NCBI GenBank assembly: GCA_000002445.1
Contig: CP000067.1
Coordinates: 864,001-928,000 of the forward strand
Source of the DNA: Trypanosoma brucei
Lineage: Eukaryota
Reading direction: 5' to 3'
DNA length: 64,000 nucleotides
In this document: in pieces, positions 3,235 through 62,454 of the stretch
Layout: each line of letters begins with the position of its first letter
Numbering within the stretch: the stretch's first letter is position 1
Translations under genes and position numbers: made by a program
The notes under the pieces: generated by a model
Told to the model about the DNA's origin: nothing
Database searches by the model: none
Seen by the model: only the letters and a program-made list of their open reading frames with translations

Positions 3235-3262
3235 TTCACTAAGCTTCCCGCTACTGCAATAT

Positions 3263-6058: not shown

Positions 6059-6206
6059 ATTATAAAATATTCTTAAACTTACCTACTTACTTCTCTTTCC
6101 CTCTCTTTTTTTCCTTTTCTTCTTCTATCTTATTGATAAAGTGTCTCTACTTTCTTCACTTCCTCCTCCCTTCAAGTGCTTGTGGGACGCGTACCGTGAA
6201 ATTAAT

Positions 6207-6275
6207 TACAAGCACAAGAAGGGAAAGATAAATTAAGGAAGGAAGGAAAGAAAGAAAAAATAGACAAACAACCAA
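6207..6275 (-). promoter_or_regulatory. polypyrimidine tract upstream of UPRT; candidate trans-splice signal
   Basis: +strand 'agaagggaaagataaattaaggaaggaaggaaagaaagaaaaaatagacaaacaacc' is a pyrimidine run on the minus strand about 150-200 nt upstream of the ATG at 6058. Confidence 0.4.
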
Positions 6276-10913: not shown

Positions 10914-12167
10914 CTACGCAGCTTCCCTCGTATCGACAGGCGGGCGCTGCAATACGAAGAAAGCACAGCGATACAACAGCTGCTTCATACTGCGATAGTT
11001 GTTGGTGTACGTGGTGTCGATCAGGATCGGGTCACGACGAACGACAAAGCCAAAACGCATAGCAACTGTCAGCACCTCGGAAAGGGAAAGTTCAATTGAA
11101 TCGCCTTCGGCGTTGCCAGCGAAGTGGTAAAGCAGTGGCCCGCAGTTCACCCAAATCCCGCCGGGCACAAGCAAGTTGTACAAAATCTTGATGTATTCCA
11201 CGATGTTATGAGCAGTGTCGATGAAGAAGCAAGTGACCACCGCGTTCCATTTCTTCAACTGACTCCCCTTGGCGTAAACCTCCGTAAAGTCCCCTGCAAC
11301 CATGGAGAGTTCACCGAAGGAATACGGCTGTTGGCTACGGCGCCCCACTTCCTCACTGGCGCACAGGTCAGGAATGTTTAGCTCCACAAACTGGTGATCC
11401 CGCTCCACCAAGTTGCACGTATTATCCACATAAGGAAAAATAGTGTGCTGACCGGGCGCCACGACATGATTCTGTATGTAATGAGCCGCAATGAGCATAT
11501 GATAACTGAACTCATTACCCTGTGCTGAAAACCCGCGAAGAGCGAGCTCCACCACGAGACGGCAAAGCCCCGCACCAGGAACGAGGATCTGAACACCTGA
11601 GCGGCGGGACACGTCGGGGAAATGCTCTTCCAACGTCTGAAGCATCGGCTTGTACACGGCATCCCGCTCTGCTGCTCCTTCGGCTGACCAGTCGCGAACA
11701 AACTGCCGAAGTGTGGAAAAGACCTTGTCAATATCAAGCGGCGTTGGCGGTGGAACCTCCTCAGGAGTTACGGTGGTGCCGTTTGGCCAGTACGCGTCAA
11801 ACAGGCCCTTCGAGGCATCGCAGATGCATTCAAAAAATTCGCTGTTGGCCTCTATGCACTTTGCGTACTTGCCGAACGTAGCCTCCAGGTCAATGCACAG
11901 TACCTCCCTGTATTCATTGTTGAATTTGTTGAAGCTCGCTAGCCGCGCCTCCCGTGAGCTCATCGCGTACTTTATATACTCACGGAACGCCTTGACGGTG
12001 CGCATGAAACTGATATGATCATCGCGCATCTCTCTATCCCCAGAAGGTGACTGGTCGGACCAAGGAAGCTGACCGTGTGGGGGGCATGCCGAATCGTAAC
12101 AGAAATCTAAGCCTGGATCGTGCGGATACGGTGGTGGCGGACCAGGGTAGCGGTCGTCACCAAGCAT
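10914..12167 (-). CDS. N2227-domain SAM-dependent methyltransferase (carnosine N-methyltransferase-like), 417 aa
   Basis: 'VQILVPGAGLCRLVVELALRGF' matches the N2227/CARNMT1 motif-I (V-L-V-P-G-A-G-L-G-R-L). Downstream 'VVTCFFIDTAHNIVEYI...LVPGGIWVNCGPLLYHF' matches the family's post-motif region. Confidence 0.6.
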   Translation of the reverse strand: MLGDDRYPGPPPPYPHDPGLDFCYDSACPPHGQLPWSDQSPSGDREMRDDHISFMRTVKAFREYIKYAMSSREARLASFNKFNNEYREVLCIDLEATFGKYAKCIEANSEFFECICDASKGLFDAYWPNGTTVTPEEVPPPTPLDIDKVFSTLRQFVRDWSAEGAAERDAVYKPMLQTLEEHFPDVSRRSGVQILVPGAGLCRLVVELALRGFSAQGNEFSYHMLIAAHYIQNHVVAPGQHTIFPYVDNTCNLVERDHQFVELNIPDLCASEEVGRRSQQPYSFGELSMVAGDFTEVYAKGSQLKKWNAVVTCFFIDTAHNIVEYIKILYNLLVPGGIWVNCGPLLYHFAGNAEGDSIELSLSEVLTVAMRFGFVVRRDPILIDTTYTNNYRSMKQLLYRCAFFVLQRPPVDTREAA

Positions 12168-39130: not shown

Positions 39131-39364
39131 GATATCCTTCTTGGTGAAACGACAACTGATAACGAGACTTGTCTTAAGAACTTACACAACTTCCAAATAG
39201 AGCTCAAGAAGAAGAGAAAAGTATTGTGAGTCACGTACAGCAAAGGATCAAAGCAGAGAGAGAGAGAGCGAAAAAGAAAGATTGGGTAACGGCAACAACA
39301 GAAGAAGTGAAACATGTAGAGAAACATGCATGAAAGCCAACGAGGCAATACCAAAAGTGGCCAG

Positions 39365-39799
39365 TCAGATGTTTGTGTAGCGCTCGTCCACAGGCCTGTC
39401 GAAATCCACATCCAACTCACAGATCCGCCAGTCCTCGTACGTATTGTCTGGAAGCACACGCCGAATAATGAGCGGAATGACACCTTCACGGAGCTCTTTC
39501 TGCGCAATAGTCAACGGGTCCGTCTCACCCTCCAATGCAACTAACACAGGAGCATTCATACTAATCTGCAATGCACGTGTCCCAAGGATGCGGGCCCTCT
39601 CGTATTTCGTCAGCACCGGAGCCGTCACGCGATCTCTGTCATCACGCCGTTTCGCTGAACCACGCACAGGTGCAGGACCAGACACAACAACACCCGCACC
39701 CGCATCACTTCGCTCATCGTCACTTTGCGCCACGCTCTCATGCTCATCACCAATGCTCAAACTCAGTCGATCAACTTCATCCTCATCACGCTCAGACAT
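39365..39799 (-). CDS. RPB6: DNA-directed RNA polymerase common subunit RPB6 (RPABC2/omega-like), copy 1, 144 aa
   Basis: '[66 protein letters not shown]' is the conserved RPB6 core. Acidic N-terminal tail 'SERDEDEVD'. Confidence 0.85.
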
Positions 39800-40573
39800 A
39801 TTTAGATTCCTTTACGGCTACGAACAGGTGCAATATCCGCACCTCTCCTCAACTGGCTAGTGGAAGTAGTAAGAGAAATAAGAAACGAAAACAAACAAGT
39901 GAAAGACAAAGAGGAGGAAAAAAAAGTATCAGCACAGAAAAGAGCAACGGGGATGGATCTGCACTAAAAGCAGAGGGGCGCTACATACGGTTAATTTTGT
40001 CGCACCCGATACACACACCCACTTGACTGGGTGGGTGGGGGGAGGGAGGAAATCCCTCCCCCTCTACGCTACCACCGCACGCACTCCCTAATAGTCGAAA
40101 AAAAAAAAATCAGAAACGGCCGTACGGACATTTATTCTCACAAAACCATCGCAACACGCCAGTCAGGTCAGGCACGAGTGGCCGCAAAAATAGAATGCAC
40201 TTCATAAAGTGAAAAATAACTGAACATAAAGAAATAGACACGAACGAAATTAAATACGGAAAAGTAATAACCAACCTTGGCTGATCAACTTGAAGAAACG
40301 AAAGTTGCTTAAATCAGCCACTAATGACAGGGGGAAAGGTAGTCGCTAAAAGTGTAGTATATAAATACGAAGGAATAGAACATTTAAAGAAAACACCAGA
40401 GTGGTGTGAACTGACCAAAATAAGAAATAACATATTCACGTCCGCTGTTGCACAAGGTGAAACTGGAAAGTAAGCACCACTTCATCGCATCTCCACGCGA
40501 CGCCGTGCAGAAAAAAATAAATAAATAAATGTAGTTCGTTCGAGCTGCCGTAATGCAACCGTATATGTGGCTA

Positions 40574-41104
40574 CTACAGGCAACAACCCGCGACAGAGCT
40601 GACAAGGAACAATACAGCAGTTACAACAATAAGGTAAAAACCGGCATCAACCGAAAAGTCACGCTCCTTAAACGGGGCGAAATCCTCGCGCAATTGATCA
40701 TCCCACTGACAAAACCCCTTTCCGTATCCAACAGTGATGAGTACGGCGCTCACCGAAGAAACAAGGAAGGATATGATGGAAAGTGGCGTGGATATGATTC
40801 GCAAACAACACAGTGGGATCTTGCAATTCGACAGAATAATGAAAACAAGAGCAGCAAAGCCTGTAAGCACTGAAATAAGGACACCAGCTTCAATTACCTG
40901 AAAGTATACACTGTACTCCTTACACGGGCTCTCATGCACCTTCGTTTGCTTCACTACATCATCAACCTTCTCCATGTAGTACCATAGGGTTTGGATCGCT
41001 TCCTTTGTTTCATTCTTCATGCGAAAAACGGGAAAAACCAACGCGCAAACAGCCGAAGCAACAGCGAATAGAGTAACAAGAGTTGTCAACCAACCGCAGC
41101 ACAT
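40574..41104 (-). CDS. four-TM Cys-rich small membrane protein, paralogue b, about 176 aa (start reassigned to internal Met)
   Basis: Starts 'MCCGWLTTLVTLFAVASAVCALVFPVFRMKNETKEAIQTLWYYMEK', aligning with paralogue c's N-terminus. The ORF track's 302-aa version (40574..41482) fuses it in-frame to a translation of the repeated RPB6 3'-flank, which also appears as stand-alone ORFs 39127..39507 and 42981..43256; that fusion is rejected. Confidence 0.5.
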   Translation of the reverse strand: MCCGWLTTLVTLFAVASAVCALVFPVFRMKNETKEAIQTLWYYMEKVDDVVKQTKVHESPCKEYSVYFQVIEAGVLISVLTGFAALVFIILSNCKIPLCCLRIISTPLSIISFLVSSVSAVLITVGYGKGFCQWDDQLREDFAPFKERDFSVDAGFYLIVVTAVLFLVSSVAGCCL

Positions 41105-41339
41105 TCTGAATATTCCTGGTGAAACGACAACTGATAACGAGGCTTGTCTTAAGAACTTACACAACTTCCAAATAGAGCTCAAGAAGAAGAGAAAAGTATT
41201 GTGAGTCACGTACAGCAAAGGATCAAAGCAGAGAGAGAGAGAGCGAAAAAGAAAGATTGGATAACGGCAACAACAGAAGAAGTGAAACATGTAGAGAAAC
41301 ATGCATGAAAGCCAACGAGGCAATACCAAAAGTGGCCAG

Positions 41340-41774
41340 TCAGATGTTTGTGTAGCGCTCGTCCACAGGCCTGTCGAAATCCACATCCAATTCACAGATC
41401 CGCCAGTCCTCGTACGTATTGTCTGGAAGCACACGCCGAATAATGAGCGGAATGACACCTTCACGGAGCTCTTTCTGCGCAATAGTCAACGGGTCCGTCT
41501 CACCCTCCAATGCAACTAACACAGGAGCATTCATACTAATCTGCAATGCACGTGTCCCAAGGATGCGGGCCCTCTCGTATTTCGTCAGCACCGGAGCCGT
41601 CACGCGATCTCTGTCATCACGCCGTTTCGCTGAACCACGCACAGGTGCAGGACCAGACACAACAACACCCGCACCCGCATCACTTCGCTCATCGTCACTT
41701 TGCGCCACGCTCTCATGCTCATCACCAATGCTCAAACTCAGTCGATCAACTTCATCCTCATCACGCTCAGACAT
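41340..41774 (-). CDS. RPB6: RPB6, copy 2, 144 aa (protein identical to copy 1)
   Basis: Identical translation to 39365..39799. Lies one repeat period (about 1975 bp) upstream. Confidence 0.85.
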
Positions 41775-42429
41775 ATTTAGATTCCTTTACGGCTACGAAC
41801 AGGTGCAATATCCGCACCTCTCCTCAACTGGCTAGTGGAAGTAGTAAGAGAAATAAGAAACGAAAACAAACAAGTGAAAGACAAAGAGGAGAAAAAAAAA
41901 GTATCAGCACAGAAAAGAGCAACGGGGATGGATCTGCACTAAAAGCAGAGGGGCGCTACATACGGTTAATTTCGTCGCACCACGCCTTATTATATAAATA
42001 TACCAGGTAAGAATAACCCTAAGTCACCACATAGCGTACAAAGTGGTAATTCTAACAGAAAGGGATGAACCAGAAACTTATCTTGCCCACAGCGTAAAAG
42101 AAATGTGAGGGAACACGAAACGGAGGAGAGTGACAACGAAGTTTAACAGCTGTTTTCGGAAACATCTACGTAAAATAAATAAATGAAATAAGTAAAATCG
42201 ATATCTGTATATTCTCGTGTTGCAGCTTAGGAAAGATGAACAAAAAACCTGGGAATAGGAAATACGTACAGATAGAAAAATAAAAATAAAAAACGTTCGT
42301 TCACGACCGCAATTGTATAGGAAAAAATAAGAAAATAGTCACTACCACGCCGCGTACCTGCAGAACCTTCAGTGTCATGGGAAGGAATGAGGCCGCTCGA
42401 GAATGTCAACGCAGCTGCTTAAATGTCCG

Positions 42430-42966
42430 CTAAAGGCAACAGTGCGTGATTGTGGTTAACAAGTATAGAGCGACAGCGGCGCAAAGAAGATATGAACCGA
42501 CATCAATTTTAAAACCACGTTCCTTGAACGGGGCGTACTTGTCGCGCAGTTTCGGATCGCCTTGGCAGTAACCTCTCAAATAACCGAGAGTAACGAGTCC
42601 AATACAAGTTATTGCACCCAGAAGAGAAAAAAAGACCAGCGATAAAGAGACAGCCTTCAAGTGCTTCATTTTTTTTCCGCAGGCAACCACACCACAGAGA
42701 AATAGAAGAGAAATGAGTCCAACTGCGGCAGCCGCTGCGACAGCGCCCATACTGACCTGAAAGTATACACTGTACTCGTAGCATTCACTCTCCCGGACAC
42801 TTGTCTTGCTTTCTGTACTCGCAGTTTTTTCCATGTAGTACCATAGGGTTTGGATCGCTTCCTTTGTTTCATTCTTCATGCGAAAAACGGGGAAGATAAT
42901 CGTACACACTGAAGTACTGGCACCCAGTAGAGTCATTAGTATTGTCAAACAGCCGCAACACAGCAT
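42430..42966 (-). CDS. four-TM Cys-rich small membrane protein, paralogue c, 178 aa
   Basis: 'MLCCGCLTILMTLLGASTSVCTIIFPVFRMKNETKEAIQTLWYYMEK...' is near-identical to paralogue b over the first about 45 aa, then diverges strongly (poly-Ala 'GAVAAAAAVG'). C-terminal '...THCCL' versus b 'VAGCCL'. Confidence 0.5.
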   Translation of the reverse strand: MLCCGCLTILMTLLGASTSVCTIIFPVFRMKNETKEAIQTLWYYMEKTASTESKTSVRESECYEYSVYFQVSMGAVAAAAAVGLISLLFLCGVVACGKKMKHLKAVSLSLVFFSLLGAITCIGLVTLGYLRGYCQGDPKLRDKYAPFKERGFKIDVGSYLLCAAVALYLLTTITHCCL

Positions 42967-43200
42967 GTTTCCTCCACCGGTTAAACGACAACTGATAACG
43001 AGGCTTGTCTTAAGAACTTACACAACTTCCAAATAGAGCTCAAGAAGAAGAGAAAAGTATTGTGAGTCACGTACAGCAAAGGATCAAAGCAGAGAGAGAG
43101 AGAGCGAAAAGGAAAGATTGGGTAACGGCAACAACAGAAGAAGTGAAACATGTAGAGAAACGTGCATGAAAGCCAACGAGGCAATACCAAAAGTGGCCAG

Positions 43201-43259
43201 TCAGATGTTTGTGTAGCGCTCGTCCACAGGCCTGTCGAAATCCACATCCAATTCACAGA
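43201..43259 (-). pseudogene. RPB6 3'-terminal remnant (last about 17 codons plus stop) at the edge of the tandem array
   Basis: 42978..43259 repeats the RPB6 downstream flank plus the RPB6 C-terminal codons ('...[16 protein letters not shown]'). Homology stops abruptly at 43259/43260. Confidence 0.5.
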
Positions 43260-43281
43260 TTGGCGTTACCGTAAACGATAG

Positions 43282-48419: not shown

Positions 48420-49573
48420 CGTCCAGGCGTTTGACGGTGCTTTCCCTCCGTTGACTACCAAGAGGTTGCTAGGCAAAACGGAGGGTAAATGCCGAGAAAA
48501 CGTTGGGATTTTTTTAAAAAAAATCAAGCGAAGAGAACGTTGAAAGAATGTCAATATTTGTGAATGAGCCGGGGTACGGCCACTCAGCAGCGCAAAGTGG
48601 TACTGCGGGAGGACCAAAAGCCGGGTAGCTAACCAAACCGCGCCCTTTGAGCCAAGTGTAAGAAGTCCCCGAAAATGAAGGGGGAATCTTACTGAGATGA
48701 GCTTGTGACTGAGTGCAAAAAGGAACAGAATTTGCAAACCCTTCATATTGCCGAGAGGAGCACGCACACATACACGCATTTAAGTATATAAGAGCAGACG
48801 ACGCATAAACCGGCACAGCACAACCGTCTGCAAATCCGTGCAAAATGTGGCTGCGGTGAACACTATACGAGCAAGTTCACTCAACGTTACACACATAGTC
48901 AAGTGAAAGACCACTGAGGATGCTTGTAAGTGCGCACGTGCACGAATACATCTACATTTCTGTCCGTGTATTTGTTCGTTTGTTTTTGGACAAAGATGAA
49001 CAGAGACTAAAAGCAAACAATGCGCCGGTCCAGCAGTACAATCCACACACCGAATTGGGTATCCCATCCGTAAATGAAGAACACACCGTCCTCCCTCAAA
49101 GTGATGGTCCCACGCTCAAAAATTCGCAATCGCCGATTCTGCTCCCTCCCCTCCCACTTTAGAACAAAATCAGAAAACACGCAAGTTTGAATTTTCGCAA
49201 AAACAAAGTGTTCCCTTCATTTCGCTCACTATTTCACCTTTCGTTAATATTTATTCACTTCGTCACGCTTAATTCACCACAGGGCACGCAAGCGTTACAC
49301 TCCTGACCTATCACTGCCCTTCCCGTTGCCCCCCCCCTCTCATCAGACCAGCACCCAAAAACGTACACGTAGGCACTCCCTCAGCCACCTCTGCGACTAC
49401 CGCAAGAGTACCTTCCCCACAGTTATATTCTTCATTCAACACAGCACCAAACAAAACAACAGCTTCCCTCACATTTCCTCGAGCAATTCAGTACCCTTAC
49501 CCCTCCTTTACTTCCATTAAACATAAACAACTAACACATAGTAATCTATTTGCTCCTACCCGTCACATCGCAC

Positions 49574-50554
49574 TTAATCGTATTGTGGTCTAAATATCTC
49601 AAAGCGGCACTTACAGTTTTCGTCCATAATCATCATAGCACCGCTGTTAGTAAACTCACCGCAGTAATTCGAGGCGCTGAAAATGGTTACAAGCTGCCGT
49701 CCCGCAAAAAATTGGTAACCTTTATCAACAACCTGGTGAGCGCGGAGAACAACGTCAATATCAAGCCTTTCACATGTTTCCTTAACGATGTCTTCCCCAA
49801 ACGTGTAGCTGACACCGCGCTCACTCTCCATCCAACCACTTCCCGCCTCCTCGGGATCAGCCCAGAGCAGATCACACGCAAGTCCGGTGTCAGGAACGAT
49901 AAGTGGGCGCTCGATCCTCTCAATCTGTCGTAAGTTGCGTAGGTCCGGGCTCAGACCACCGTGCATGCAGAGTGCAATGTCATCAATGAGCGCAGCAATC
50001 GGCAAACAATTGAACACATCAGTGAACTCCTTGAATAGTTTCACTGAAAAACGCCGCTTCACCTCATCAAAGAAACCGTATATCCTGCAGATGCTGTCGG
50101 ATTCATGATTGCCACGAAGAACACACATGCCGTCAGGGTACAGGATCTTCAATCCCAGAAGCACAACAATCACCTCCGTCCCATGCTTCCCACGATCTAC
50201 GTAATCGCCTAAAAACAGGTAGTTCGTTGCGGGAGGCATCCCACCGGCACGGAATATCTCTACAAGATCACCAATTTGGCCATGAATGTCTCCACAGACG
50301 TTGATCGGAGCCTGCAGTCGAACCAGCATGGGTTGGGCCATGAGGATGGGCCGAACAAGTCGGAGAATGGTGCTTATTATTTGGCCATCCAGCAACTCCT
50401 GGGCTGATTGCCAATCTTTCAGGATTGATTCCACTAGACGCTGAATGGTTTCTCTGTCACGATTAGAAGGGTCTGGCCGAGCTCCGTGGGACCACCGCCC
50501 AGATTGTGCCTCAGACGAATTGGTACGTCCCCGTTTCCGCACAATAGTCGACAT
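49574..50554 (-). CDS. divergent PP1-like PPP-family Ser/Thr phosphatase, 326 aa
   Basis: PPP motifs 'GDIHGQ', 'GDYVDRG', 'LRGNHE', 'HGG', 'RAHQ', variant 'SASNYC' (canonical SAPNYC). About 70-aa Arg/Ser-rich N-terminal extension. Roughly 45% identity by eye to the PP1 array proteins. Confidence 0.85.
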
Positions 50555-51104
50555 CCACAGCTCACACCAAAGTCTCTCCTCGAACAGTTAGAGTCCAAGT
50601 CTAATGTTAAAAAAATTTCACCCAGGGCTGGGAAAAACAGCAAGTCCCACAGTAGACGGCACAAGAAAACCTTGTTGAATGTACCTCACACCTTTGCCGA
50701 ACAGAATGGTCAGTGGGAGAAAAGGCTAGCTGAGTACCTGCTGTTGTGGTCCTTTTTGACGCGGCCTCACCTCACCCTCTGAATGGAGCGCCGTGTCACC
50801 CTAGTATACCTGACTAACATGCACGCAAGTTTAATAAATAATTCGACAGAGGGAAAGGAGCGGAATATTCCAAACAGCATAACAGTACATGGGGCAGCAG
50901 CACGAGGTGGTGTCGAACCTCCACCACCACCCATCTACGACATACACACACATGCACACAGATGCAAACAACTTATCGGATTAGCAGCATTATATAATAT
51001 GGAGAATAAAACCGAAAAAAAAAAATACCATTTCTCCTATTTTCCTCGTATCCCTTAGACCATTTAACTCTTCATCCTATCCCCCTTGCCTCTGGAATGG
51101 GCGA

Positions 51105-51785
51105 CTAGATTTTATTCCAGGCCACAATGTCCATTGACTGTACGGCATCTCCGAAAGACATGATCATCTCCTCCAGGTCATCTCCAGACACCTTATCGTC
51201 CTCAATGACAACCAACTGTTGCAGCTTCTTAACTCCGAACGCAATGGGTACCAGTTTGTGGTCACCCCACAGTAGACCGTCTCTCTTAATTGCATGGAGT
51301 TCCGTGGCAAGCTTTTGCAAATCCACTGTATCATCCCACGGCTTGATGTCAAACAGGATTGATGACTTTGCAATGATAACCTTCTTTGTGCTCTTGGCTG
51401 CGGCATCCTTCTTCTTCTTCGCCTCCAGGGCTGCAAGCTCCTCCTCCGTGGTCTCACCGAAGAGATCGATGTCATCGTCGTCGGCCTCAGCAGCCTTCCT
51501 TGCTGGGGTAGCAGCGGGAGCAGCAGCGGGGGCAGCAGCGGGGGCAGCGACAGGAGCGGCAACAGGGGGCGTGATCTTCACGGGGGCACCCCAGGCAGTG
51601 CGCTCGGCCTCGGTAAAAGAGGCGATATTCTTCACCCAGCGGAATACATTCGTATTGTCTCCACCGAGCAGATCGTTGAATGCCTTTACATCCTCCTCGG
51701 AGGGCTTCACGCCACCCAAAAATAGTTTCCCCTTAAGCTTCTCCTCCAGCTTCCCGCTCTTCACATTGACGTCCTTGATCGACAT
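51105..51785 (-). CDS. EF1B: translation elongation factor 1-beta (EF-1B guanine-nucleotide exchange subunit), copy 1, about 226 aa (start at internal Met 'MSIKDVNVKSG')
   Basis: C-terminal GEF domain 'KSSILFDIKPWDDTVDLQKLATELHAIKRDGLLWGDHKLVPIAFGVKKLQQLVVIEDDKVSGDDLEEMIMSFGDAVQSMDIVAWNKI'. Acidic linker 'DDDDIDLFGETTEEELAALEAKKKK'. A polyY tract falls inside the 35-aa upstream ORF extension, so that extension is treated as 5'UTR. Confidence 0.85.
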   Translation of the reverse strand: MSIKDVNVKSGKLEEKLKGKLFLGGVKPSEEDVKAFNDLLGGDNTNVFRWVKNIASFTEAERTAWGAPVKITPPVAAPVAAPAAAPAAAPAATPARKAAEADDDDIDLFGETTEEELAALEAKKKKDAAAKSTKKVIIAKSSILFDIKPWDDTVDLQKLATELHAIKRDGLLWGDHKLVPIAFGVKKLQQLVVIEDDKVSGDDLEEMIMSFGDAVQSMDIVAWNKI

Positions 51786-51892
51786 GTCCTTCCCGCTTCG
51801 ATTACACACAAATGAGCACTTGTTGTGGCATTTCACAATAGAAAAAAAAGCAAAGGGTATGAAAACGGGAGAATACATATGATCACACATCC

Positions 51893-51932
51893 GAAAGGCA
51901 GAAAGGGGAAAAAAAAGAAGGAAAGGGAAAGG
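51893..51932 (-). promoter_or_regulatory. polypyrimidine tract upstream of EF-1beta copy 1 (duplicated at about 53950..53989)
   Basis: +strand 'gaaaggcagaaaggggaaaaaaaagaaggaaagggaaagg'. A further (A)8 run lies inside the discarded N-terminal ORF extension. Confidence 0.45.
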
Positions 51933-53161
51933 ACCTGAACTCCGGGCAGTACTTGTACGTGCGCACTAGACATTGGCAGGTGCATCGACAGGGAAGGCAT
52001 CCAACGTACGAAGGACAAGCTTTGTTTGCTCCAATAGCGCCGCAACAGCTGCACGCAACGCCCGCTCCTGCGTGGCACATAGCCTAGCAAACACCGTCGA
52101 TCGCGCACTATCATCAGCCCATAGCTGAACCTCTCTCGATGTGCCAGGGACAGGTGGTTCTACGCGCAATACCTGCAACATGATGGATGCCACCTCAGGG
52201 TTCGGAAGGGGGAGCCGCAGCACACACTGCAGCAAATCGTGGTCCCCACCCCCTGCATCGGGATCCATACGCCTCATCAGCTTGCGAGTCACACTGATGA
52301 CAAACAGGTAACCAACTACACCTTACGTCACCTCCAGCCCAAAGACACAACAGAGAAGGGAGAAGGTTGGCTGCAGGGAACCACTCATGGCCACTTTCGA
52401 GGGGAGTGATACGGTGGGTAACAGGAAGAGGCTCACACCAAAAAGTGGGGCAAAAGGCACCAAAAACATGGGGGCAACCGCAGTTCCCCCCTTCGTATAA
52501 ACCGCAACCTGGGGCAACCAAGGAAAAGACCCTGCAGATCCTCAGCAAGAGCCAAAATACTGAAAGCGGGCGCGGCATTGATAAACTGCATTCGGTAGTG
52601 TATGTTTTCTAACCTGTGGCCGCATGGGCCTTTGTGCAGGACTAGAAGTGTGGTCTAGCAATACGAGAAACAAACGTCATTTACCACCTTCATTATTGTT
52701 GGGGTACAATAGACGGCACAAGAAAACCTTGTTGAATGTACCTCACACCTTTGCCGAACAGAATGGTCAGTGGGAGAAAAGGCTAGCTGAGTACCTGCTG
52801 TTGTGGTCCTTTTTGACGCGGCCTCACCTCACCCTCTGAATGGAGCGCCGTGTCACCCTAGTATACCTGACTAACATGCACGCAAGTTTAATAAATAATT
52901 CGACAGAGGGAAAGGAGCGGAATATTCCAAACAGCATAACAGTACATGGGGCAGCAGCACGAGGTGGTGTCGAACCTCCACCACCACCCATCTACGACAT
53001 ACACACACATGCACACAGATGCAAACAACTTATCGGATTAGCAGCATTATATAATATGGAGAATAAAACCGAAAAAAAAAAATACCATTTCTCCTATTTT
53101 CCTCGTATCCCTTAGACCATTTAACTCTTCATCCTATCCCCCTTGCCTCTGGAATGGGCGA

Positions 53162-53842
53162 CTAGATTTTATTCCAGGCCACAATGTCCATTGACTGTAC
53201 GGCATCTCCGAAAGACATGATCATCTCCTCCAGGTCATCTCCAGACACCTTATCGTCCTCAATGACAACCAACTGTTGCAGCTTCTTAACTCCGAACGCA
53301 ATGGGTACCAGTTTGTGGTCACCCCACAGTAGACCGTCTCTCTTAATTGCATGGAGTTCCGTGGCAAGCTTTTGCAAATCCACTGTATCATCCCACGGCT
53401 TGATGTCAAACAGGATTGATGACTTTGCAATGATAACCTTCTTTGTGCTCTTGGCTGCGGCATCCTTCTTCTTCTTCGCCTCCAGGGCTGCAAGCTCCTC
53501 CTCCGTGGTCTCACCGAAGAGATCGATGTCATCGTCGTCGGCCTCAGCAGCCTTCTTTGCTGGGGTAGCAGCGGGAGCAGCAGCGGGGGCAGCAGCGGGG
53601 GCAGCGACAGGAGCGGCAACAGGGGGCGTGATCTTCACGGGGGCACCCCAGGCAGTGCGCTCGGCCTCGGTAAAAGAGGCGATATTCTTCACCCAGCGGA
53701 ATACATTCGTATTGTCTCCACCGAGCAGATCGTTGAATGCCTTTACATCCTCCTCGGAGGGCTTCACGCCACCCAAAAATAGTTTCCCCTTAAGCTTCTC
53801 CTCCAGCTTCCCGCTCTTCACATTGACGTCCTTGATCGACAT
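53162..53842 (-). CDS. EF1B: EF-1beta, copy 2 (one conservative difference R/K in the Ala/Pro-rich linker)
   Basis: Identical to copy 1 except 'ATPARKAAE' versus 'ATPAKKAAE'. Lies 2057 bp (one repeat period) upstream. Confidence 0.85.
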   Translation of the reverse strand: MSIKDVNVKSGKLEEKLKGKLFLGGVKPSEEDVKAFNDLLGGDNTNVFRWVKNIASFTEAERTAWGAPVKITPPVAAPVAAPAAAPAAAPAATPAKKAAEADDDDIDLFGETTEEELAALEAKKKKDAAAKSTKKVIIAKSSILFDIKPWDDTVDLQKLATELHAIKRDGLLWGDHKLVPIAFGVKKLQQLVVIEDDKVSGDDLEEMIMSFGDAVQSMDIVAWNKI

Positions 53843-54632
53843 GTCCTTCCCGCTTCGATTACACACAAATGAGCACTTGTTGTGGCATTTCACAATAGAA
53901 AAAAAAGCAAAGGGTATGAAAACGGGAGAATACATATGATCACACATCCGAAAGGCAGAAAGGGGAAAAAAAAGAAGGAAAGGGAAAGGACCTGAACTCC
54001 GGGCAGTACTTGTACGTGCGCACTAGACATTGGCAGGTGCATCGACAGGGAAGGCATCCAACGTACGAAGGACAAGCTTTGTTTGCTCCAATAGCGCCGC
54101 AACAGCTGCACGCAACGCCCGCTCCTGCGTGGCACATAGCCTAGCAAACACCGTCGATCGCGCACTATCATCAGCCCATAGCTGAACCTCTCTCGATGTG
54201 CCAGGGACAGGTGGTTCTACGCGCAATACCTGCAACATGATGGATGCCACCTCAGGGTTCGGAAGGGGGAGCCGCAGCACACACTGCAGCAAATCGTGGT
54301 CCCCACCCCCTGCATCGGGATCCATACGCCTCATCAGCTTGCGAGTCACACTGATGACAAACAGGTAACCAACTACACCTTACGTCACCTCCAGCCCAAA
54401 GACACAACAGAGAAGGGAGAAGGTTGGCTGCAGGGAACCACTCATGGCCACTTTCGAGGGGAGTGATACGGTGGGTAACAGGAAGAGGCTCACACCAAAA
54501 AGTGGGGCAAAAGGCACCAAAAACATGGGGGCAACCGCAGTTCCCCCCTTCGTATAAACCGCAACCTGGGGCAACCAAGGAAAAGACCCTGCAGATCCTC
54601 AGCAAGAGCCAAAATACTGAAAGCGGGCGCGG

Positions 54633-55262
54633 AGAACAACGTCAATATCAAGCCTTTCACATGTTTCCTTAACGATGTCTTCCCCAAACGTGTAGCTGAC
54701 ACCGCGCTCACTCTCCATCCAACCACTTCCCGCCTCCTCGGGATCAGCCCAGAGCAGATCACACGCAAGTCCGGTGTCAGGAACGATAAGTGGGCGCTCG
54801 ATCCTCTCAATCTGTCGTAAGTTGCGTAGGTCCGGGCTCAGACCACCGTGCATGCAGAGTGCAATGTCATCAATGAGCGCAGCAATCGGCAAACAATTGA
54901 ACACATCAGTGAACTCCTTGAATAGTTTCACTGAAAAACGCCGCTTCACCTCATCAAAGAAACCGTATATCCTGCAGATGCTGTCGGATTCATGATTGCC
55001 ACGAAGAACACACATGCCGTCAGGGTACAGGATCTTCAATCCCAGAAGCACAACAATCACCTCCGTCCCATGCTTCCCACGATCTACGTAATCGCCTAAA
55101 AACAGGTAGTTCGTTGCGGGAGGCATCCCACCGGCACGGAATATCTCTACAAGATCACCAATTTGGCCATGAATGTCTCCACAGACGTTGATCGGAGCCT
55201 GCAGTCGAACCAGCATGGGTTGGGCCATGAGGATGGGCCGAACAAGTCGGAGAACGGTGCTG
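54633..55262 (-). pseudogene. internally derived fragment of the PP1-like phosphatase gene (corresponds to about 49746..50374), lacking N-terminal about 60 aa and C-terminal about 55 aa
   Basis: About 630 bp near-identical to the middle of gene 49574..50554. 3' end fused to the EF-1beta unit at a shared 'GCGCGG' hexamer (54627-54632 versus 49740-49745). 5' homology ends about 55262. The retained ORF ends '...[13 protein letters not shown]', missing the 'SAPNYC' region. Confidence 0.6.
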
Positions 55263-57727
55263 ATCGTGAGGTCTCCTCTCTAGGAGGTATGGAAATGCTG
55301 TCGCAAACGCACGCGCAGAGGGGACCGAAAAAAAAAAAAGTGAACTTTGTAAAACTTCACCAATGAAATAATAATTTCGTGTGCTCGCCGTAGAAACGGG
55401 CAAACTTTATCCTCTCATACGCGTCATTGCATCATCTTATTACCTTGCATGGTATGTGTGACGGAGCAAGGCTTCGTCGTGCTGTTTCGCCACCAGTGAC
55501 TTAAAGGAGAATACCAGAGGACGAAAACAAAGAAAAGCACAGGAAATTTAGAGAAAACACGTGCTATCTGCATCAGTTATGAAAAAAACGCTGCTTTCCA
55601 GCCAGTTAACACACAAATAATTGTCGCAAAACGCGGACAACCACCAACCTAAATGATTAAGTATAAAAACTTGCGTGCGTGTGCATGCGCATGTATGCGT
55701 TAAATATATGACAACAGGGGCATAAACGTATATGATATTTAACATCGACGTGTTACGCGGTGCCATACGAGGGGGAGAACTGTGCGCGTTGAAGACAATA
55801 TTGAGGAACTCATCGCGCAGAGATGCGAGAAGAAAAAAAAAAAGCAAAACACAAACAACGTAAACTGGACCCTTTTTGTTCCGTTTTCCACCATCTCGTT
55901 ATTTCCCTCCATTTCTTCCCGCAAACAAACTGGACACAAATCAAATTGCTGATGGGCAGTCTCGTCAGGTTTGGTGTGCGGTGTGACGCACAAGAAGTAA
56001 AAACACAAATATCACTTAACACCGTCTTCCTTTCCCTTTCATACTCCCTCGTCATATCTTTCTCAGGTCCTTCCTTCACATTTTCCTCTCCGCATTGCTT
56101 CGTTTCACCTCACCTCGATCACCACTCGCCTCGTCAGCCCCTTTTTTTGTCGCTTCATGTCTCTCCTACACGCACACACACGCAGACACACGTTGGGCCT
56201 GCTCTCCACGCCCTTCTTATATATATATATGAACTCTTCACTCATTCATACCACTTATTCTCCGTACTCTCAAACTTTTTCGTTCCTTTTCCATTTCGAT
56301 TACAACTTACCCCCGCCCGTCGCGCACTCGCAACAGAAGTGGGAAGGAAGAAAAGAATCGACCGATGGCAAAAAGCAGAAAAAAAGAGGGCACCCACTGG
56401 ATGGCGCTGTACAATTAGAGTGAGACAAAAACAAAAACAAGACGAATTATAAAACAGGAATAGCGCTAGAATGAGAAGAATTAAACCTAGAAGAAAAGAA
56501 CACAAAGATAATAAGAAGAGGGGCAAAGGAGGAGAAGAGAGATTTAAAAGAAGGAAAACAAAAAAAAAAGGAAAATGAATGGCTGAAGAATTACCGCCAT
56601 CGCTGCCAGCACTGCCGGTGTCCTTTTTGTGCTGATGGTGGTATTTCTTGCTTCCTTTCTATTACTTCCCTTCCTACCCTTGCCGTTGTGTTTCGGCACG
56701 CCATCCATCACACATCCCTCCGCCCCAACTTCTTTTTCCACGGACACCACTCCTTCCCCTCCCCCCGGCAACCCCGCCAAGTCACAAGACTTCACACACT
56801 GTTATCTGAATGCCCCACAACTCAGACATATGAGTATGTTGTCGGCACACAGCAGTGGTAACGGAGGGTGTGAGTGAGGAGGTCATGGAGGTGAAGGAAA
56901 AATAATTGACCAACTCTACAACGCAACCGTACCCATTATCCCTATACCCACACCGAAAAAAAAAAACGAAAAGGAAAAATTGTAGAGAAACAGGAAGAAC
57001 ATCCATCCCACACACCAATAACATTATAATCCGTTTCACCATTATATGCCCTCACTCTCTCACCTATTCTCGCCGTATTTATACTGGCACCATTTGTCCT
57101 CTCCCTATTCAACTTTCATTTTCATGCATATCATCCCCCACTCTTCACCGGTGCAGTAAACATCAGGAAGAGGTTGGGGAAAGAAAAGCATTGCTCAGGC
57201 GTAACGATATCATAACATGAAAGCAAAAATGGAGAAAACAAGGTGCTACTGCCAATAATGAACATAACAACATATAACTTCACGGAGATACGAAAATGGA
57301 AACTTTAAGAAAAAATGATAAAAACAAACGAATGATGATGGTGGAAATCACTGACACCCATATCAGCACTGTTTGAAGCGGAGGAGGGATAAAAAACATG
57401 TGACATACCGTAACATGTGCAGACGAGTAAAAGGTAGTATAAAGAAAAGTTATGCCCCCGAAGGCAAACAAGAGGGCAACGAACGAAGTAGAGGTGGCTA
57501 CCAATGAGCAAAGCTCAGGGCAACAGAAACTTCTGATAACTAAAAAAAATATTTAAATGGCGTCACCTCCTGTACAACAAGGCCGCTGCAGAGCGTTTGG
57601 CCGATTGCTCTCCTTCCCCATACCCTTGCCCAACAACTCTCCCGCAGTGCATTCAACCATTGCAGACAAACAAAACAACATATCCCATTACTAAATATAC
57701 ACTCACTACGCAACGACTACTTGGCAA

Positions 57728-58612
57728 TCAGCGAGCAGGTATAATGAGAAAGGAACATTGTAACTTCTCGTCAACATTCATGACGGCTGCATCATTGTCA
57801 AATTCACCACAGTAGTTCGGCGCAGAGAAGATGGTCACCAACTGGCGGTTTGCGAAGAAGCCGTAACCACGCTCCATCACTTGGTGAGCACGCACAACAA
57901 GGTCCATATCCACCATATCAAGGAAGTCAGTTACAATGTCTTCCCCAAACAGGTAACTCACACCGCGGTCACTCTCCAGGAAACCCTTTACTTCATCCTC
58001 GGGATCTGCCCACAGCAAGTCACAGAGAATACCTTTGTCAGGCACATCCAGCGGGCGTTCTATTTCATTCACAGAGGCCAATGAAGTCATGTCCGGACTC
58101 AGCCCACCATGCATGCAGATGATTTTCTCGCTCACAACACAGCATACAGGCATAGTGTTAAATACATCTGTGAATGCTTTAAACAGTTTGATGTTATAAC
58201 GTCGCTTTACGTCATCGAAGAAACCGTACATTTTGTTTATGCTCGCACATTCATGATTACCGCGAAGGAGAAAGAAATTCTCCGGATACACAATTTTATA
58301 ACAAAAAAGCAAAGTGATTGTCTCTACGCTGTGTCGGCCACGGTCAACATAGTCACCTAGAAACAGGTAATTTGAATACGGTGGAAATCCACACTTCTCA
58401 AATACGCGCAGCAAGTCGTAGTATTGGCCATGGATATCCCCACAAATCCTCACTGGTGGCGTGATCTCTAGAAGCATGGGCTGTGACATGAATACGTCAC
58501 GAACGGTATTGAGAATTGTCCGTATGTCCTCCTCGCGAATGAGAATTTGCTGTTGCGTTGCACTGCCCTTGGCGCTGAGCATCCGCTCCAGCAGTGTCTG
58601 TACTAGGGTCAT
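57728..58612 (-). CDS. PP1: protein phosphatase 1 catalytic subunit, array copy a, 294 aa
   Basis: '[17 protein letters not shown]', '[10 protein letters not shown]', '[25 protein letters not shown]', 'MHGGLSPD', 'DLLWADP', 'RAHQV', '[12 protein letters not shown]': canonical PP1. C-terminus '...CSFLIIPAR' differs from copies b and c. Confidence 0.9.
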
Positions 58613-58780
58613 CCTTACGGGCTGGGTTGTCGGGCTAAACTACGCACGTCGATCGGATGCACACTCACACGAGTGCTACTCCTCCCCCGCCTTGCTTTCG
58701 TGTCCCTTAGTTATCGCTCTTGTCTGACGACTTCGATGCTACCTACACACTTGCTAGTAAGCCAGTAACACCTAATTACT

Positions 58781-58820
58781 AAACGAAAGCAAAGAAAGAT
58801 GGAAGGAAAGGGAAAAAGTA
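58781..58820 (-). promoter_or_regulatory. polypyrimidine tract upstream of PP1 copy a (repeated in each array unit at +1921 bp)
   Basis: +strand 'aaacgaaagcaaagaaagatggaaggaaagggaaaaagta'. Confidence 0.45.
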
Positions 58821-59648
58821 ATTAGAGCGGTGCGGTTTCGCGGTTACAGCAAACATGCCAAGAACCTACGGGGCGTCCCTGCGCAACGGAAGGAACCTCA
58901 AACAGGGGAAGCCCAACAGCAACAGCCAGGGTGACGACTTTTACGTATTCACAACATTGTTCCCGCCTAGACAGCTGTGCCACTGAGTGCAATGACGAGA
59001 GAGCAAAGCTACAGGGGTGAAAATATAAACATGCATAAAAGGGGGGATAGAATATTAGAATATTTATCTGAAACGGTGGCAGGGTGGACAAATCTCAAGC
59101 AGCAAACCCAACCCAAATTTCAAGCCACAGTCCATTTCAGGGTGATGGGTGTACATGAACTCTTTAACATGAGATTACGACAATTCCTCAGACAGCGTAT
59201 TTGTTTCCACTCCTTCATTTTCTCCTCTGAACGCATATGTGGAAATATAAGCCATGACAAAGCACGCTTTTCTTAACGTCAGCCCTCATTACCAGAAAAC
59301 GGAAACACACATGAACATATCTGCAAATGATGGGAGAGTAGATGGGCGGGGGGAACGAATGGTTGAAGGAGCGAATGTATCATCACCGCCGCAAAAAAAC
59401 AAAAAAAAGACAGCGAAAAGTTGCAATTCAACGAGAGCGGGTGTGGAAAAAATGACCCATCCGGGCCTATTGACTGGGAGGTTTAACCTGATAAAGGACC
59501 CTACCCATGCTGCCATTAACTTAAACTCACTTCGTATAACAAACGATTTCTTCGCATTTCATCACGTCACACGCACTATCAAGACCATTCCGTGATTCAC
59601 ACATTGTCGCAGATACAAAAACGTCAGTACCCGACTCCCCGGCCCACA

Positions 59649-60533
59649 TTAGCGAGCTGCAATGATAGCAAAAGAACATTGTAACTTCTCGTCGACATTC
59701 ATGACGGCTGCATCATTGTCAAATTCACCACAATAGTTCGGCGCAGAGAAGATGGTCACCAACTGGCGGTTTGCGAAGAAGCCGTAACCACGCTCCATCA
59801 CTTGGTGAGCACGCACAACAAGGTCCATATCCACCATATCAAGGAAGTCAGTTACAATGTCTTCCCCAAACAGGTAACTCACACCGCGGTCACTCTCCAG
59901 GAAACCTTTTACTTCCTCCTCAGGATCTGCCCACAGCAAGTCACAGAGAATACCTTTGTCAGGCACATCCAGCGGGCGTTCTATTTCGCTTACGCAAGCC
60001 AACGAAGTCATGTCCGGACTCAGCCCACCATGCATGCAGATGATTTTCTCACCTACAACACAGCATACAGGCATAGTGTTAAATACATCTGTGAATGCTT
60101 TAAACAGTTTGGCGTTATAACGTCGCTTTACGTCATCGAAGAAACCGTACATTTTGTTTATGCTCGCACATTCATGATTACCGCGAAGGAGAAAGAAATT
60201 CTCCGGATACACAATTTTATAACAAAAAAGCAAAGTGATTGTCTCTACGCTGTGTCGGCCACGGTCAACATAGTCACCTAGAAACAGGTAATTTGAATAC
60301 GGTGGAAATCCACACTTCTCAAATACGCGCAGCAAGTCGTAGTATTGGCCATGGATATCCCCACAAATCCTCACTGGTGGCGTGATATCTAGCACAACCG
60401 GCTGTGACATGAATACGTCACGAACGGCATTGAGAATTGTCCGTATGTCCTCCTCGCGAATGAGAATTTGCCTTTGAGCCGTGTTTCCCTTGGCGCTGAG
60501 CATCCGCTCCAGCAGTGTCTGTACTAGGGTCAT
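59649..60533 (-). CDS. PP1: protein phosphatase 1 catalytic subunit, array copy b, 294 aa
   Basis: Same PP1 motifs. Differs from copy a at 'KGNTAQRQ', 'NAV', 'PVVLDI', 'RRYNAKLF', 'VVGEK', 'SLACVSE', 'PEEEV', 'CSFAIIAAR'. Confidence 0.9.
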
Positions 60534-61569
60534 CCTTACGGGCTGGGTTGTCGGGCTAAACTACGCACGTCGATCGGATGCACACTCACACGAGTGCTAC
60601 TCCTCCCCCGCCTTGCTTTCGTGTCCCTTAGTTATCGCTCTTGTCTGACGACTTCGATGCTACCTACACACTTGCTAGTAAGCCAGTAACACCTAATTAC
60701 TAAACGAAAGCAAAGAAAGATGGAAGGAAAGGGAAAAAGTAATTAGAGCGGTGCGGTTTCGCGGTTACAGCAAACATGCCAAGAACCTACGGGGCGTCCC
60801 TGCGCAACGGAAGGAACCTCAAACAGGGGAAGCCCAACAGCAACAGCCAGGGTGACGACTTTTACGTATTCACAACATTGTTCCCGCCTAGACAGCTGTG
60901 CCACTGAGTGCAATGACGAGAGAGCAAAGCTACAGGGGTGAAAATATAAACATGCATAAAAGGGGGGATAGAATATTAGAATATTTATCTGAAACGGTGG
61001 CAGGGTGGACAAATCTCAAGCAGCAAACCCAACCCAAATTTCAAGCCACAGTCCATTTCAGGGTGATGGGTGTACATGAACTCTTTAACATGAGATTACG
61101 ACAATTCCTCAGACAGCGTATTTGTTTCCACTCCTTCATTTTCTCCTCTGAACGCATATGTGGAAATATAAGCCATGACAAAGCACGCTTTTTTTAACGT
61201 CAGCCCTCATTACCAGAAAACGGAAACACACATGAACATATCTGCAAATGATGGGAGAGTAGATGGGCGGGGGGAACGAATGGTTGAAGGAGCGAATGTA
61301 TCATCACCGCCGCAAAAAAACAAAAAAAAGACAGCGAAAAGTTGCAATTCAACGAGAGCGGGTGTGGAAAAAATGACCCATCCGGGCCTATTGACTGGGA
61401 GGTTTAACCTGATAAAGGACCCTACCCATGCTGCCATTAACTTAAACTCACTTCGTATAACAAACGATTTCTTCGCATTTCATCACGTCACACGCACTAT
61501 CAAGACCATTCCGTGATTCACACATTGTCGCAGATACAAAAACGTCAGTACCCGACTCCCCGGCCCACA

Positions 61570-62454
61570 TTAGCGAGCTGCAATGATAGCAAAAGAACAT
61601 TGTAACTTCTCGTCGACATTCATGACGGCTGCATCATTGTCAAATTCACCACAATAGTTCGGCGCAGAGAAGATGGTCACCAACTGGCGGTTTGCGAAGA
61701 AGCCGTAACCACGCTCCATCACTTGGTGAGCACGCACAACAAGGTCCATATCCACCATATCAAGGAAGTCAGTTACAATGTCTTCCCCAAACAGGTAACT
61801 CACACCGCGGTCACTCTCCAGGAAACCCTTTACTTCCTCCTCAGGATCTGCCCACAGCAAGTCACAGAGAATACCTTTGTCAGGCACATCCAGCGGGCGT
61901 TCTATTTCATTCACGGCAGCCAACGAAGTCATGTCCGGACTCAGCCCACCATGCATGCAGATGATTTTCTCACCTACAACACAGCATACAGGCATAGTGT
62001 TAAATACATCTGTGAATGCTTTAAACAGTTTGATGTTATAACGTCGCTTTACGTCATCGAAGAAACCGTACATTTTGTTTATGCTCGCACATTCATGATT
62101 ACCGCGAAGGAGAAAGAAATTCTCCGGATACACAATTTTATAACAAAAAAGCAAAGTGATTGTCTCTACGCTGTGTCGGCCACGGTCAACATAGTCACCT
62201 AGAAACAGGTAATTTGAATACGGTGGAAATCCACACTTCTCAAATACGCGCAGCAAGTCGTAGTATTGGCCATGGATATCCCCACAAATCCTCACTGGTG
62301 GCGTGATATCTAGCACAACCGGCTGTGACATGAATACGTCACGAACGGCATTGAGAATTGTCCGTATGTCCTCCTCGCGAATGAGAATTTGCCTTTGAGC
62401 CGTGTTTCCCTTGGCGCTGAGCATCCGCTCCAGCAGTGTCTGTACTAGGGTCAT
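61570..62454 (-). CDS. PP1: protein phosphatase 1 catalytic subunit, array copy c, 294 aa (mosaic of a and b)
   Basis: Matches copy b at most variable sites but has copy a's 'RRYNIKLF' and an intermediate 'SLAAVNE'. Confidence 0.9.

Follow-up and report, generated by a model that had tools for sequence, protein, structure and literature searches.

We analysed a 64,000-nucleotide stretch of Trypanosoma brucei TREU927 chromosome 4 (contig CP000067.1, positions 864,001 to 928,000; hereafter the window), in which an incomplete second copy of the gene for the protein phosphatase PP1-7 lies beside two near-identical cassettes carrying the genes for EF-1β and Pcc1. Adding 864,000 to a window coordinate gives the chromosome coordinate, an offset borne out by the upstream open reading frames (uORFs) of Jensen 2014, whose positions match exactly onto the window. 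All genes of the locus are on the minus strand and belong to a single polycistron. The features are the following (aa, amino acids; ORF, open reading frame; UTR, untranslated region).

49574-50554, minus strand: PP1-7 (Tb927.4.3560), a full 326-aa PP1-type phosphatase and the parent gene; 100% identity to XP_844506, Pfam Metallophos
49740-50377, minus strand: parent segment from which the fragment was copied (codons 272 to 60); 49740-50367 perfect, 50368-50377 with two fixed differences
49740-49745: GCGCGG in the parent (sense CCGCGC), codons Arg271-Ala272, directly before His273
50555-50648, minus strand: unique spacer from cassette 1 to the PP1-7 ATG, forming the 3' part of the PP1-7 5' UTR
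50649-52575, minus strand: cassette 1 (U1), 1,927 bp, with Pcc1, EF-1β and the PP1-7 splice acceptor
51105-51785, minus strand: EF-1β coding sequence of cassette 1 (Tb927.4.3570), with its own splice acceptor at 51818
51966-52277, minus strand: Pcc1 coding sequence of cassette 1 (Tb927.4.3580)
52576-52705, minus strand: linker of 130 bp, unique sequence
52706-54632, minus strand: cassette 2 (U2), with the PP1-7 splice acceptor repeated at 52870
53162-53842, minus strand: EF-1β coding sequence of cassette 2 (Tb927.4.3590)
54023-54334, minus strand: Pcc1 coding sequence of cassette 2 (Tb927.4.3600), splice acceptor 54388
54627-54632: GCGCGG at the junction of the fragment with cassette 2; an identical hexamer closes cassette 1 at 52570-52575
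54627-55264, minus strand: homology block of the PP1-7 fragment
54599-55228, minus strand: fragment ORF of 209 aa, Tb927.4.3610 (XP_844511), PP1-7 residues 72-272 plus the tail RFQYFGSC
54491-55513, minus strand: mapped transcript of Tb927.4.3610 (Kolev 2010)
55407-55450, minus strand: two uORFs in the fragment 5' UTR (Jensen 2014, Additional file 5)

The accession series AAZ10947-10952 follows this order (PP1-7, EF-1β, Pcc1, EF-1β, Pcc1, fragment), and XP_844511, the fragment, is annotated as 'serine/threonine-protein phosphatase PP1, putative'. Its ORF, 919228-918599 in Table S3 of Kolev 2010, corresponds to window 55228-54599. As a further check on the offset, an AG directly precedes all seven splice-acceptor positions checked (five published, plus two equivalents in the other cassette), with a polypyrimidine tract upstream of each.

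The initial annotation, made from the sequence alone, had described a full PP1-like gene, two EF-1β units and a truncated phosphatase copy, and realignment of the region left this layout standing with small corrections only. The repeat borders of the units held: 50653-52575 equals 52710-54632 over 1,923 bp, with a single mismatch at 51499/53556. Note, however, that the homology runs four nucleotides further, to 50649/52706, with one extra mismatch (ACAG versus ACAA). The unit is 1,927 bp long, the linker 130 and not 134 bp, and the period 2,057 bp, with two mismatches between the copies. The two units (50649-52575 and 52706-54632) are direct, adjacent and of constant period, that is, a head-to-tail tandem duplication. 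As first annotated, the two EF-1β coding sequences differ by one Arg/Lys change (PARKAAE versus PAKKAAE), which is the mismatch at 51499/53556.

Two components of the unit had been overlooked. Beside EF-1β, each cassette carries a 103-aa gene of the Pcc1 (KEOPS subunit) family, identified by Pfam PF09341 on orthologous gene calls, by AAZ10949 and AAZ10951, and by tblastn. Moreover, the splice acceptor of PP1-7 (50813, giving a 5' UTR of 259 nt) lies 165 nt inside cassette 1, and its copy stands at 52870 in cassette 2. In Kolev 2010, position 916870 (window 52870) is the predominant acceptor for Tb927.4.3580, the first Pcc1 copy; this may reflect either a 593-nt 5' UTR running through the linker or a multi-mapping artefact. 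The 261-aa EF-1β ORF is over-extended (51786-51890, 53843-53947), past the splice acceptor; since this is mapped at 51818/53875, we place the EF-1β start at 51785/53842, for a protein of 226 aa. The EF-1β poly(A) site is at 50975/53032; for the second Pcc1 copy the splice acceptor is at 54388 and the poly(A) site at 53994. The (A/P)-rich linker of EF-1β is encoded by a 12-nt imperfect tandem repeat at 51490-51578 and 53547-53635 (GCAGCAGCGGGG-like, plus strand).

The PP1-7 fragment matches its parent over 628 bp without a mismatch (49740-50367 and 54627-55254), and the match continues to 50377/55264 with two mismatches in ten bases, at 50368 and 50375. The fragment derives from the interior of the gene: it was copied, as DNA and unprocessed, from PP1-7 codons 60/63-272 and is truncated at both ends; its 5' border agrees with the break near codon 60 that had been proposed. 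At its 3' end it meets the start of the distal cassette in a non-homologous join at GCGCGG, as had been suggested from the hexamers at 49740-45 and 54627-32. With 52570-52575, these are the only three copies on the plus strand between 49 and 56 kb. The flanks on either side of the hexamer are unrelated and the shared stretch is exactly 6 nt, the pattern of a microhomology-mediated non-homologous junction; microhomology of at least 6 nt at a random junction would occur by chance with p about 0.0013. At the join between cassette and linker there is a match of ACA (50649-51 / 52706-08), and the border between the fragment and the DNA upstream of it shows 8/10 identity. None of the junction-spanning ORFs was present in the protein collection (0/9).

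In its direct orientation and kilobase scale, with a breakpoint in a neighbouring gene and a 6-bp microhomology at the novel junction, the element resembles the duplicative gene fragments found at the edges of segmental duplications, which are attributed to microhomology-mediated end joining (MMEJ) or to fork stalling and template switching/microhomology-mediated break-induced replication (FoSTeS/MMBIR). Unlike simple fragments of this kind, that of T. brucei is truncated at both ends and lies upstream of the cassette, off the simple tandem junction. Its double truncation and position therefore call for at least two events, or one multi-switch event.

The loci of other species put this structure in context. 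In T. cruzi and T. melophagium the order is PP1 array, a gene we call X, Pcc1, EF-1β, PP1-7 and RPL13a; the cassette occurs once, and there is no PP1-7 fragment. A comparison with sister species had been proposed as a way of dating the rearrangement; the fragment is missing from these two, and the structure is shared across the Trypanozoon haplogroups described below. Gene X encodes a small, fast-evolving COMM-domain protein that is also present in T. grayi (T. cruzi locus 7239-7691, T. melophagium locus 7004-7391). We found no trace of it in the window (interval 55265-57727), and no T. brucei homologue by word-indexed search. The fragment and its acceptor occupy the position of X, and the acceptor at 55499 might be orphaned from the lost gene; that the fragment displaced X is only suggested by this arrangement. 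In T. melophagium a tRNA-Glu(CTC) gene lies between X and Pcc1 (locus 7462-7533), and no such gene is present in the T. brucei, T. cruzi, T. vivax-flank or Leishmania loci scanned.

T. vivax has a repeat of its own. In SOPI01000560.1, 7757-9432 equals 10230-11905 (1,676 bp, 99.8%, period 2,473 bp), comprising Pcc1 codons 77-107, EF-1β and PP1-7 codons 1 to about 74, so that there are two EF-1β genes; an 80-aa N-terminal PP1-7 fragment ORF (9212-9454) and a 3' fragment of Pcc1 lie upstream of the intact genes. As in T. brucei, EF-1β is present in two near-identical copies and part of PP1-7 lies upstream of Pcc1, and the PP1-7 breakpoint (codon about 74) is within about 14 codons of the 5' border of the T. 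brucei fragment (codon 60-63). Unlike in T. brucei, the PP1-7 fragment is N-terminal and non-overlapping, and Pcc1 is fragmented as well. Since the unit borders differ, the T. vivax event appears to be independent, or independently remodelled. L. donovani (LR812654.1) also has two EF-1β copies (58-1034 and 6360-7337; 99.8% over 978 bp) at a distance of 6.3 kb. A partial EF-1β (aa 3-68) lies in the interval, at 3226-3423, and within 10 kb upstream there is no PP1-7 fragment.

We propose that the T. brucei fragment is, in all probability, collateral debris of a recurrent duplication that raises EF-1β dosage. Trypanosomes cannot raise the transcription of single genes, and gene dosage substitutes for it; because of this lack of single-gene control, the doubled EF-1β dose would be the working part of the duplication. 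Two steps would suffice. In the first, linker plus cassette would have been duplicated in tandem. In the second, the GCGCGG microhomology join would have put PP1-7 sequence before the distal cassette. This could have come about through a larger tandem duplication that reached codon 272 of PP1-7 and whose upstream copy was then cut back to codon 60 by a deletion, or else through a template-switch patch or a single multi-switch event; the junctions fit both variants. We infer that this path is the most parsimonious one. On it, the upstream end of the cassette homology would be the PP1-7 join point and the downstream end the tandem-duplication junction, and no coincidence of breakpoints is needed because the linker is read as ancestral flanking DNA. 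The linker, presumably the ancestral flank upstream of the cassette, has no second copy or source by blastn-short in the window and all the loci compared, and the upstream DNA and linker gave low-complexity noise only against T. cruzi and T. melophagium intergenic DNA (tblastx, blastn).

Two other paths were tried and rejected. A plain duplication of cassette, spacer, PP1-7 5' part and the copied PP1-7 segment, followed by a deletion, predicts the linker upstream of the fragment, whereas its actual place is between the cassettes. As to an ancestral second paralogue of PP1-7 upstream of Pcc1, neither T. cruzi nor T. melophagium has one.

Several points weigh against the debris proposal. The ancestral status of the linker rests on two things, its uniqueness and the exact coincidence of the repeat borders. 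The dosage rationale is drawn from general trypanosome biology. The order of events is putative, no fragment-free haplotype having come up among those compared and the out-groups used being more distant than T. congolense. The chromosome-level assemblies of T. b. gambiense DAL972 and 'T. equiperdum' IVM-t1 have one cassette and no linker, which is either copy-number polymorphism or collapsed assembly. Finally, RNA and ribosome reads within the 628-bp block are not assignable to fragment rather than parent, those of the uORFs and 5' UTR being the only unique ones.

The best-surviving alternative is that the structure arose in one step of FoSTeS/MMBIR-type template switching, in which a chimera of PP1-7 interior and cassette was inserted between the upstream DNA and the linker. 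This is possible, if clearly the less likely course. In its favour, all copies are in direct orientation within 5 kb, the fragment/cassette join has the 6-bp microhomology, the cassette/linker join an ACA match and the upstream border 8/10 identity, and the net change is a single insertion of ~2.55 kb at one site. On the other hand, three switches would be needed at once, the ancestral contiguity of upstream DNA and linker has to be assumed, and T. vivax shows a tandem duplication that broke in PP1-7, with truncation of the upstream copy, so that a stepwise path is sufficient.

A wider reading makes the locus a rearrangement hotspot under selection for EF-1β dosage, with the fragment perhaps serving as a conversion donor into PP1-7 or as a translated pseudophosphatase; we consider it unlikely. 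For a hotspot speak the two homogenised EF-1β copies with differing unit borders in each of T. brucei, T. vivax and Leishmania, and the breaks within codons 60-74 of PP1-7 in both T. brucei and T. vivax. For a conversion donor into PP1-7, an essential-looking gene, speaks the parent gene of T. equiperdum OVI, which has a fragment-type base at 50368 (OVI contig position about 2374). This OVI parent (Ile63Val at 50368) is of the parent type at 50375, a pattern that hints at fragment-to-parent conversion or at a shifting tract border.

What the fragment could encode bears on whether it has a function. Pfam Metallophos matches both the 326-aa parent and the 209-aa fragment ORFs (fragment E=2.8e-34), and the fragment retains GDIHGQ, GDYVDRG, GNHE and HGG, the ligand motifs of the N-terminal half. 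Its ORF starts at parent Met72, so that 71 residues of the N-terminal catalytic part are gone. At the other end it closes with RAR/FQYFGSC where the parent has RAHQVV: the parent-derived sequence stops one residue before His273 of RAHQ, which we take to be the equivalent of PP1 His248, a metal ligand. Solved PP1 structures can be aligned to residues 55-324 of the parent. The fragment lacks the C-terminal third and with it the β12-β13 loop and the β-sheet of the C-terminus, which in PP1 forms the RVxF groove. The initial annotation had stated that the first three motifs were kept and RAHQ and everything beyond lost, which the ORF comparison bore out except for a motif name (the parent reads SASNYC, not SAPNYC); the C-terminus that it feared to have misread is not intact. 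Because the metal-ligand histidine, the N-terminal 71 residues and the C-terminal third are lost from an established active-site architecture, the predicted product cannot be an active PPP phosphatase, in agreement with what had been claimed.

Published mapping shows that the fragment is nevertheless made into a trans-spliced, polyadenylated mRNA. It had been placed in the polycistron as a possible transcribed pseudogene, with the advice to look for spliced-leader and poly(A) sites over it; it is indeed part of the minus-strand polycistron, and such sites have been mapped. Kolev 2010 (Table S12) gives 919,499 (window 55499) as the predominant splice acceptor of Tb927.4.3610, with a 5' UTR of 271 nt and a dispersion of 3.67; this acceptor lies in unique DNA, and its AG and polypyrimidine tract are seen in the window. 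The transcript of Kolev 2010 (Table S3; 919,513-918,491) has its 3' end at window 54491, and the transcript model of Vasquez 2014 extends to 918,527 (window 54527), with a 72-nt 3' UTR. The poly(A) sites fall in cassette sequence, where assignment to copy 2 is not unique. With a fragment-specific acceptor and poly(A) sites in the published data, the transcript is a processed pseudogene mRNA. This processing would follow from where the fragment happens to lie, with a good splice acceptor in the unique DNA before it and the processing signals of Pcc1 after it.

Additional file 5 of Jensen 2014 lists two uORFs for Tb927.4.3610 (Tb927_04 919450-919424 and 919427-919407), which are ATG-to-stop ORFs at window 55450-55424 and 55427-55407; their normalised read counts are 6-136 across all 18 ribosome-profiling and mRNA libraries. 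The same file enters the gene as protein-coding ('is pseudogene: No'), and Vasquez 2014 reports a translational-efficiency value for the fragment. In RNAs per cell, Table S6 of Kolev 2010 gives 42.5 for the EF-1β pair, 8.7 for PP1-7 and the fragment (3560 and 3610 lumped) and 6.2 for Pcc1, the EF-1β transcript being by far the most abundant of the three genes. The supplements of Nilsson 2010 hold no entry for these genes.

These data could be taken to mean that the fragment is a functional truncated paralogue, a pseudophosphatase or decoy or a regulatory RNA, held by selection and not by conversion alone. In support of this, the 209-aa ORF is intact in TREU927, DAL972 and IVM-t1, its mRNA has a splice acceptor and poly(A) sites of its own, ribosome footprints fall on its uORFs, and the gene is annotated as protein-coding, with a translational-efficiency value. 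We nevertheless give this interpretation little weight. Constant copying from the parent accounts in full for the open frame, only eight codons being fragment-specific, and the sole private change seen (S154G, in IVM-t1) is non-synonymous. Both ends would be missing from the product, the first 71 residues on one side and, on the other, the His248-equivalent ligand together with the β12-β13 loop and the C-terminal β-sheet, and footprints within the 628-bp block are not assignable to the fragment. Moreover, T. cruzi and T. melophagium have no such fragment, and that of T. vivax is different and non-overlapping.

The copying was evident when genomes were compared. Within the 628-bp block, four sites (50186, 49958, 49846, 49775; one of them an Ala/Thr237 difference) are equal in parent and fragment in each genome and differ between genomes. 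Parent and fragment differ within a genome at no site in TREU927 and DAL972 and at one in IVM-t1, versus three to four between orthologues (per 628 bp); only two copy-specific sites are fixed in all three genomes, both at the extreme 5' edge. The cassettes behave likewise. TREU927 cassettes 1 and 2 and that of OVI differ at one or two sites, DAL972 and IVM-t1 at two, and these two haplogroups are 12-16 sites plus indels apart, versus 2/1,927 within TREU927. The split fits the East-African (TREU927, OVI) and West/Central-African (DAL972, IVM-t1) origins of the lineages, and linker-bearing samples of the DAL972/IVM-t1 haplogroup show the state of that haplogroup at all haplogroup sites.

In addition, mismatches are concentrated within 12 nt of the repeat ends, 5/72 versus 2/4,169 elsewhere (Fisher p=2.5e-8; T. 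vivax repeat included, repeat ends defined by alignment extension). Both parent/fragment and cassette/cassette pairs thus have the marks of concerted evolution, with paralogues more similar than orthologues and junctions that are shared. Together, the variant patterns show that the identity of both pairs reflects ongoing gene conversion, not recency. Because the junctions are shared across haplogroups, the duplications are older than the haplogroup split, and the whole structure predates the divergence of the sampled Trypanozoon haplogroups. Of the two explanations first offered for the near-identity of the EF-1β copies, recent duplication or active homogenisation, the second stood and the first did not, the haplogroup polymorphisms being common to both copies.

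In the trypanosome tandem arrays of Jackson 2007, interiors are likewise homogenised, edges eroded and paralogues closest within a genome. Unlike ordinary tandem-array conversion, the exchange here links a functional gene with a dead fragment 4.9 kb off, across essential genes. Were parent and fragment to cross over, all copies of EF-1β and Pcc1 would be lost, and only non-crossover products are expected to survive.

That the copies are identical simply because the duplication is very recent is therefore highly improbable. The few differences within TREU927 (0/628 and 2/1,927) would fit; however, the same junctions and the same two fixed edge differences occur in East- and West/Central-African lineages, and haplogroup-specific single-nucleotide polymorphisms (SNPs) are present in the interiors of both copies. 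Recent spread by introgression of one haplotype is contradicted by 0.5-0.8% divergence across the region.

The possibility of mis-assembly, raised at the outset, is excluded by independent assemblies. DAL972 and IVM-t1 agree with TREU927 in the 209-aa ORF, the fragment/cassette junction and the upstream border, down to the two fixed edge differences. In OVI, a contig of 2,399 bp runs from 32 nt of cassette end through linker, cassette and spacer to the 5' part of PP1-7, and ends 25 nt into the repeated PP1-7 block. Among Logan contigs, from independent runs carrying IVM-t1-type Pcc1, ERR7929164 holds the linker with one SNP and both linker junctions, and contig L011 reads 30 nt of cassette end, linker (with one SNP) and cassette. 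Contigs L010 and L012 start exactly at cassette base 1 and L003 ends exactly 30 nt inside the cassette; these contig ends fall where a k=31 graph is expected to branch, at either border of the cassette.

Linker and branch points at both borders were found in the IVM-t1-like Logan samples (ERR7929157/59/61/64), and the IVM-t1 assembly was built mainly from MiSeq reads, with only 7,508 PacBio reads. Collapse of the repeat in DAL972 and IVM-t1 is at least as likely as real contraction. In IVM-t1, EF-1β shows a 1-nt gap in the GC-rich Ala/Pro repeat (IVM-t1 locus about 8983-9082, window equivalent 51532) that splits the tblastn match; this is likely to be a sequencing error, and probably the reason why no EF-1β gene was called there.

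That the reference itself contains a mis-joined or collapsed repeat is scarcely tenable. Near-identical 2-kb repeats are error-prone, and cassette number does differ in the DAL972 and IVM-t1 chromosomes, but the fragment/cassette junction is present in three independent assemblies, the linker junctions in OVI and in the Logan assembly of an independent run, and the published splice, poly(A) and ORF coordinates fit the structure. Finally, although trypanosomes have active retroelements, retroposition as a processed pseudogene can be dismissed with near certainty: the copy is internal to the coding sequence, has no spliced-leader remnant, no poly(A) tract at its 3' junction and no target-site duplication, and its parent, which has the same orientation, is 2.8-4.9 kb away.

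The fragment has been annotated and described before, so its novelty is low. The same array is 'Tb24' of Jackson 2007 (BMC Evol Biol 7:54, PMC1855330), where, in the part dealing with it, a PP1 copy without N- and C-termini is described and concerted evolution is rejected for the array overall, copies 4/5 keeping orthology across species. The corresponding part of Brenchley 2007 (PMC2175518) names PP1-7 (Tb927.4.3560) and notes that two tandem EF-1β genes part it from PP1-4/5/6. In those parts of the two papers the object is the same, but base-level junctions and microhomology are not given, Pcc1 is not mentioned in the unit and conversion between Tb24.4 and Tb24.5 is not reported. What we add is the base-level anatomy, Pcc1 in the unit, the evidence for fragment-parent and cassette-cassette conversion, the probable mis-assembly of copy number in two reference genomes, and the parallel event in T. 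vivax.

Beyond the fragment lie the three tandem canonical PP1 genes PP1-6/5/4 (Tb927.4.3620-3640; 57728-62454, minus strand, period 1,921 bp), with a protein identity to PP1-7 of about 50%. This array has three copies in TREU927 and four in the IVM-t1 assembly (locus 847-7491), and only two are called in the DAL972 stretch examined. On the other side, the longest ORF of RPL13a (342 aa) is over-extended upstream (48420-48779), gene calls in other assemblies giving 222 aa. Further downstream in the polycistron is another local repeat, 39138-40006 / 41113-41981 (99.3%) and 40896-41399 / 42755-43260 (87.7%), which corresponds to alternating amastin/RPB6 gene pairs called in the DAL972 and IVM-t1 loci. 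A tRNA scan of the window found none, and a structured-RNA scan gave only sub-threshold SCARNA7 matches in the EF-1β 3' region (26 bits, threshold 65), which we treated as chance.

The finding has little meaning beyond this locus, where it provides a clean example of the debris left by dosage duplication in an organism without gene-specific transcription control. It is also an example of gene debris gaining mRNA processing signals, and of gene conversion holding a dead fragment identical to its parent over long evolutionary time. In practice, phosphatome lists and phylogenies should carry Tb927.4.3610 as a pseudogene or fragment. Reads, RNA interference fragments and CRISPR guides on PP1-7 codons 63-272 also match the fragment, and the copy number of EF-1β and Pcc1 at this locus may be mis-assembled in short-read Trypanozoon genomes.

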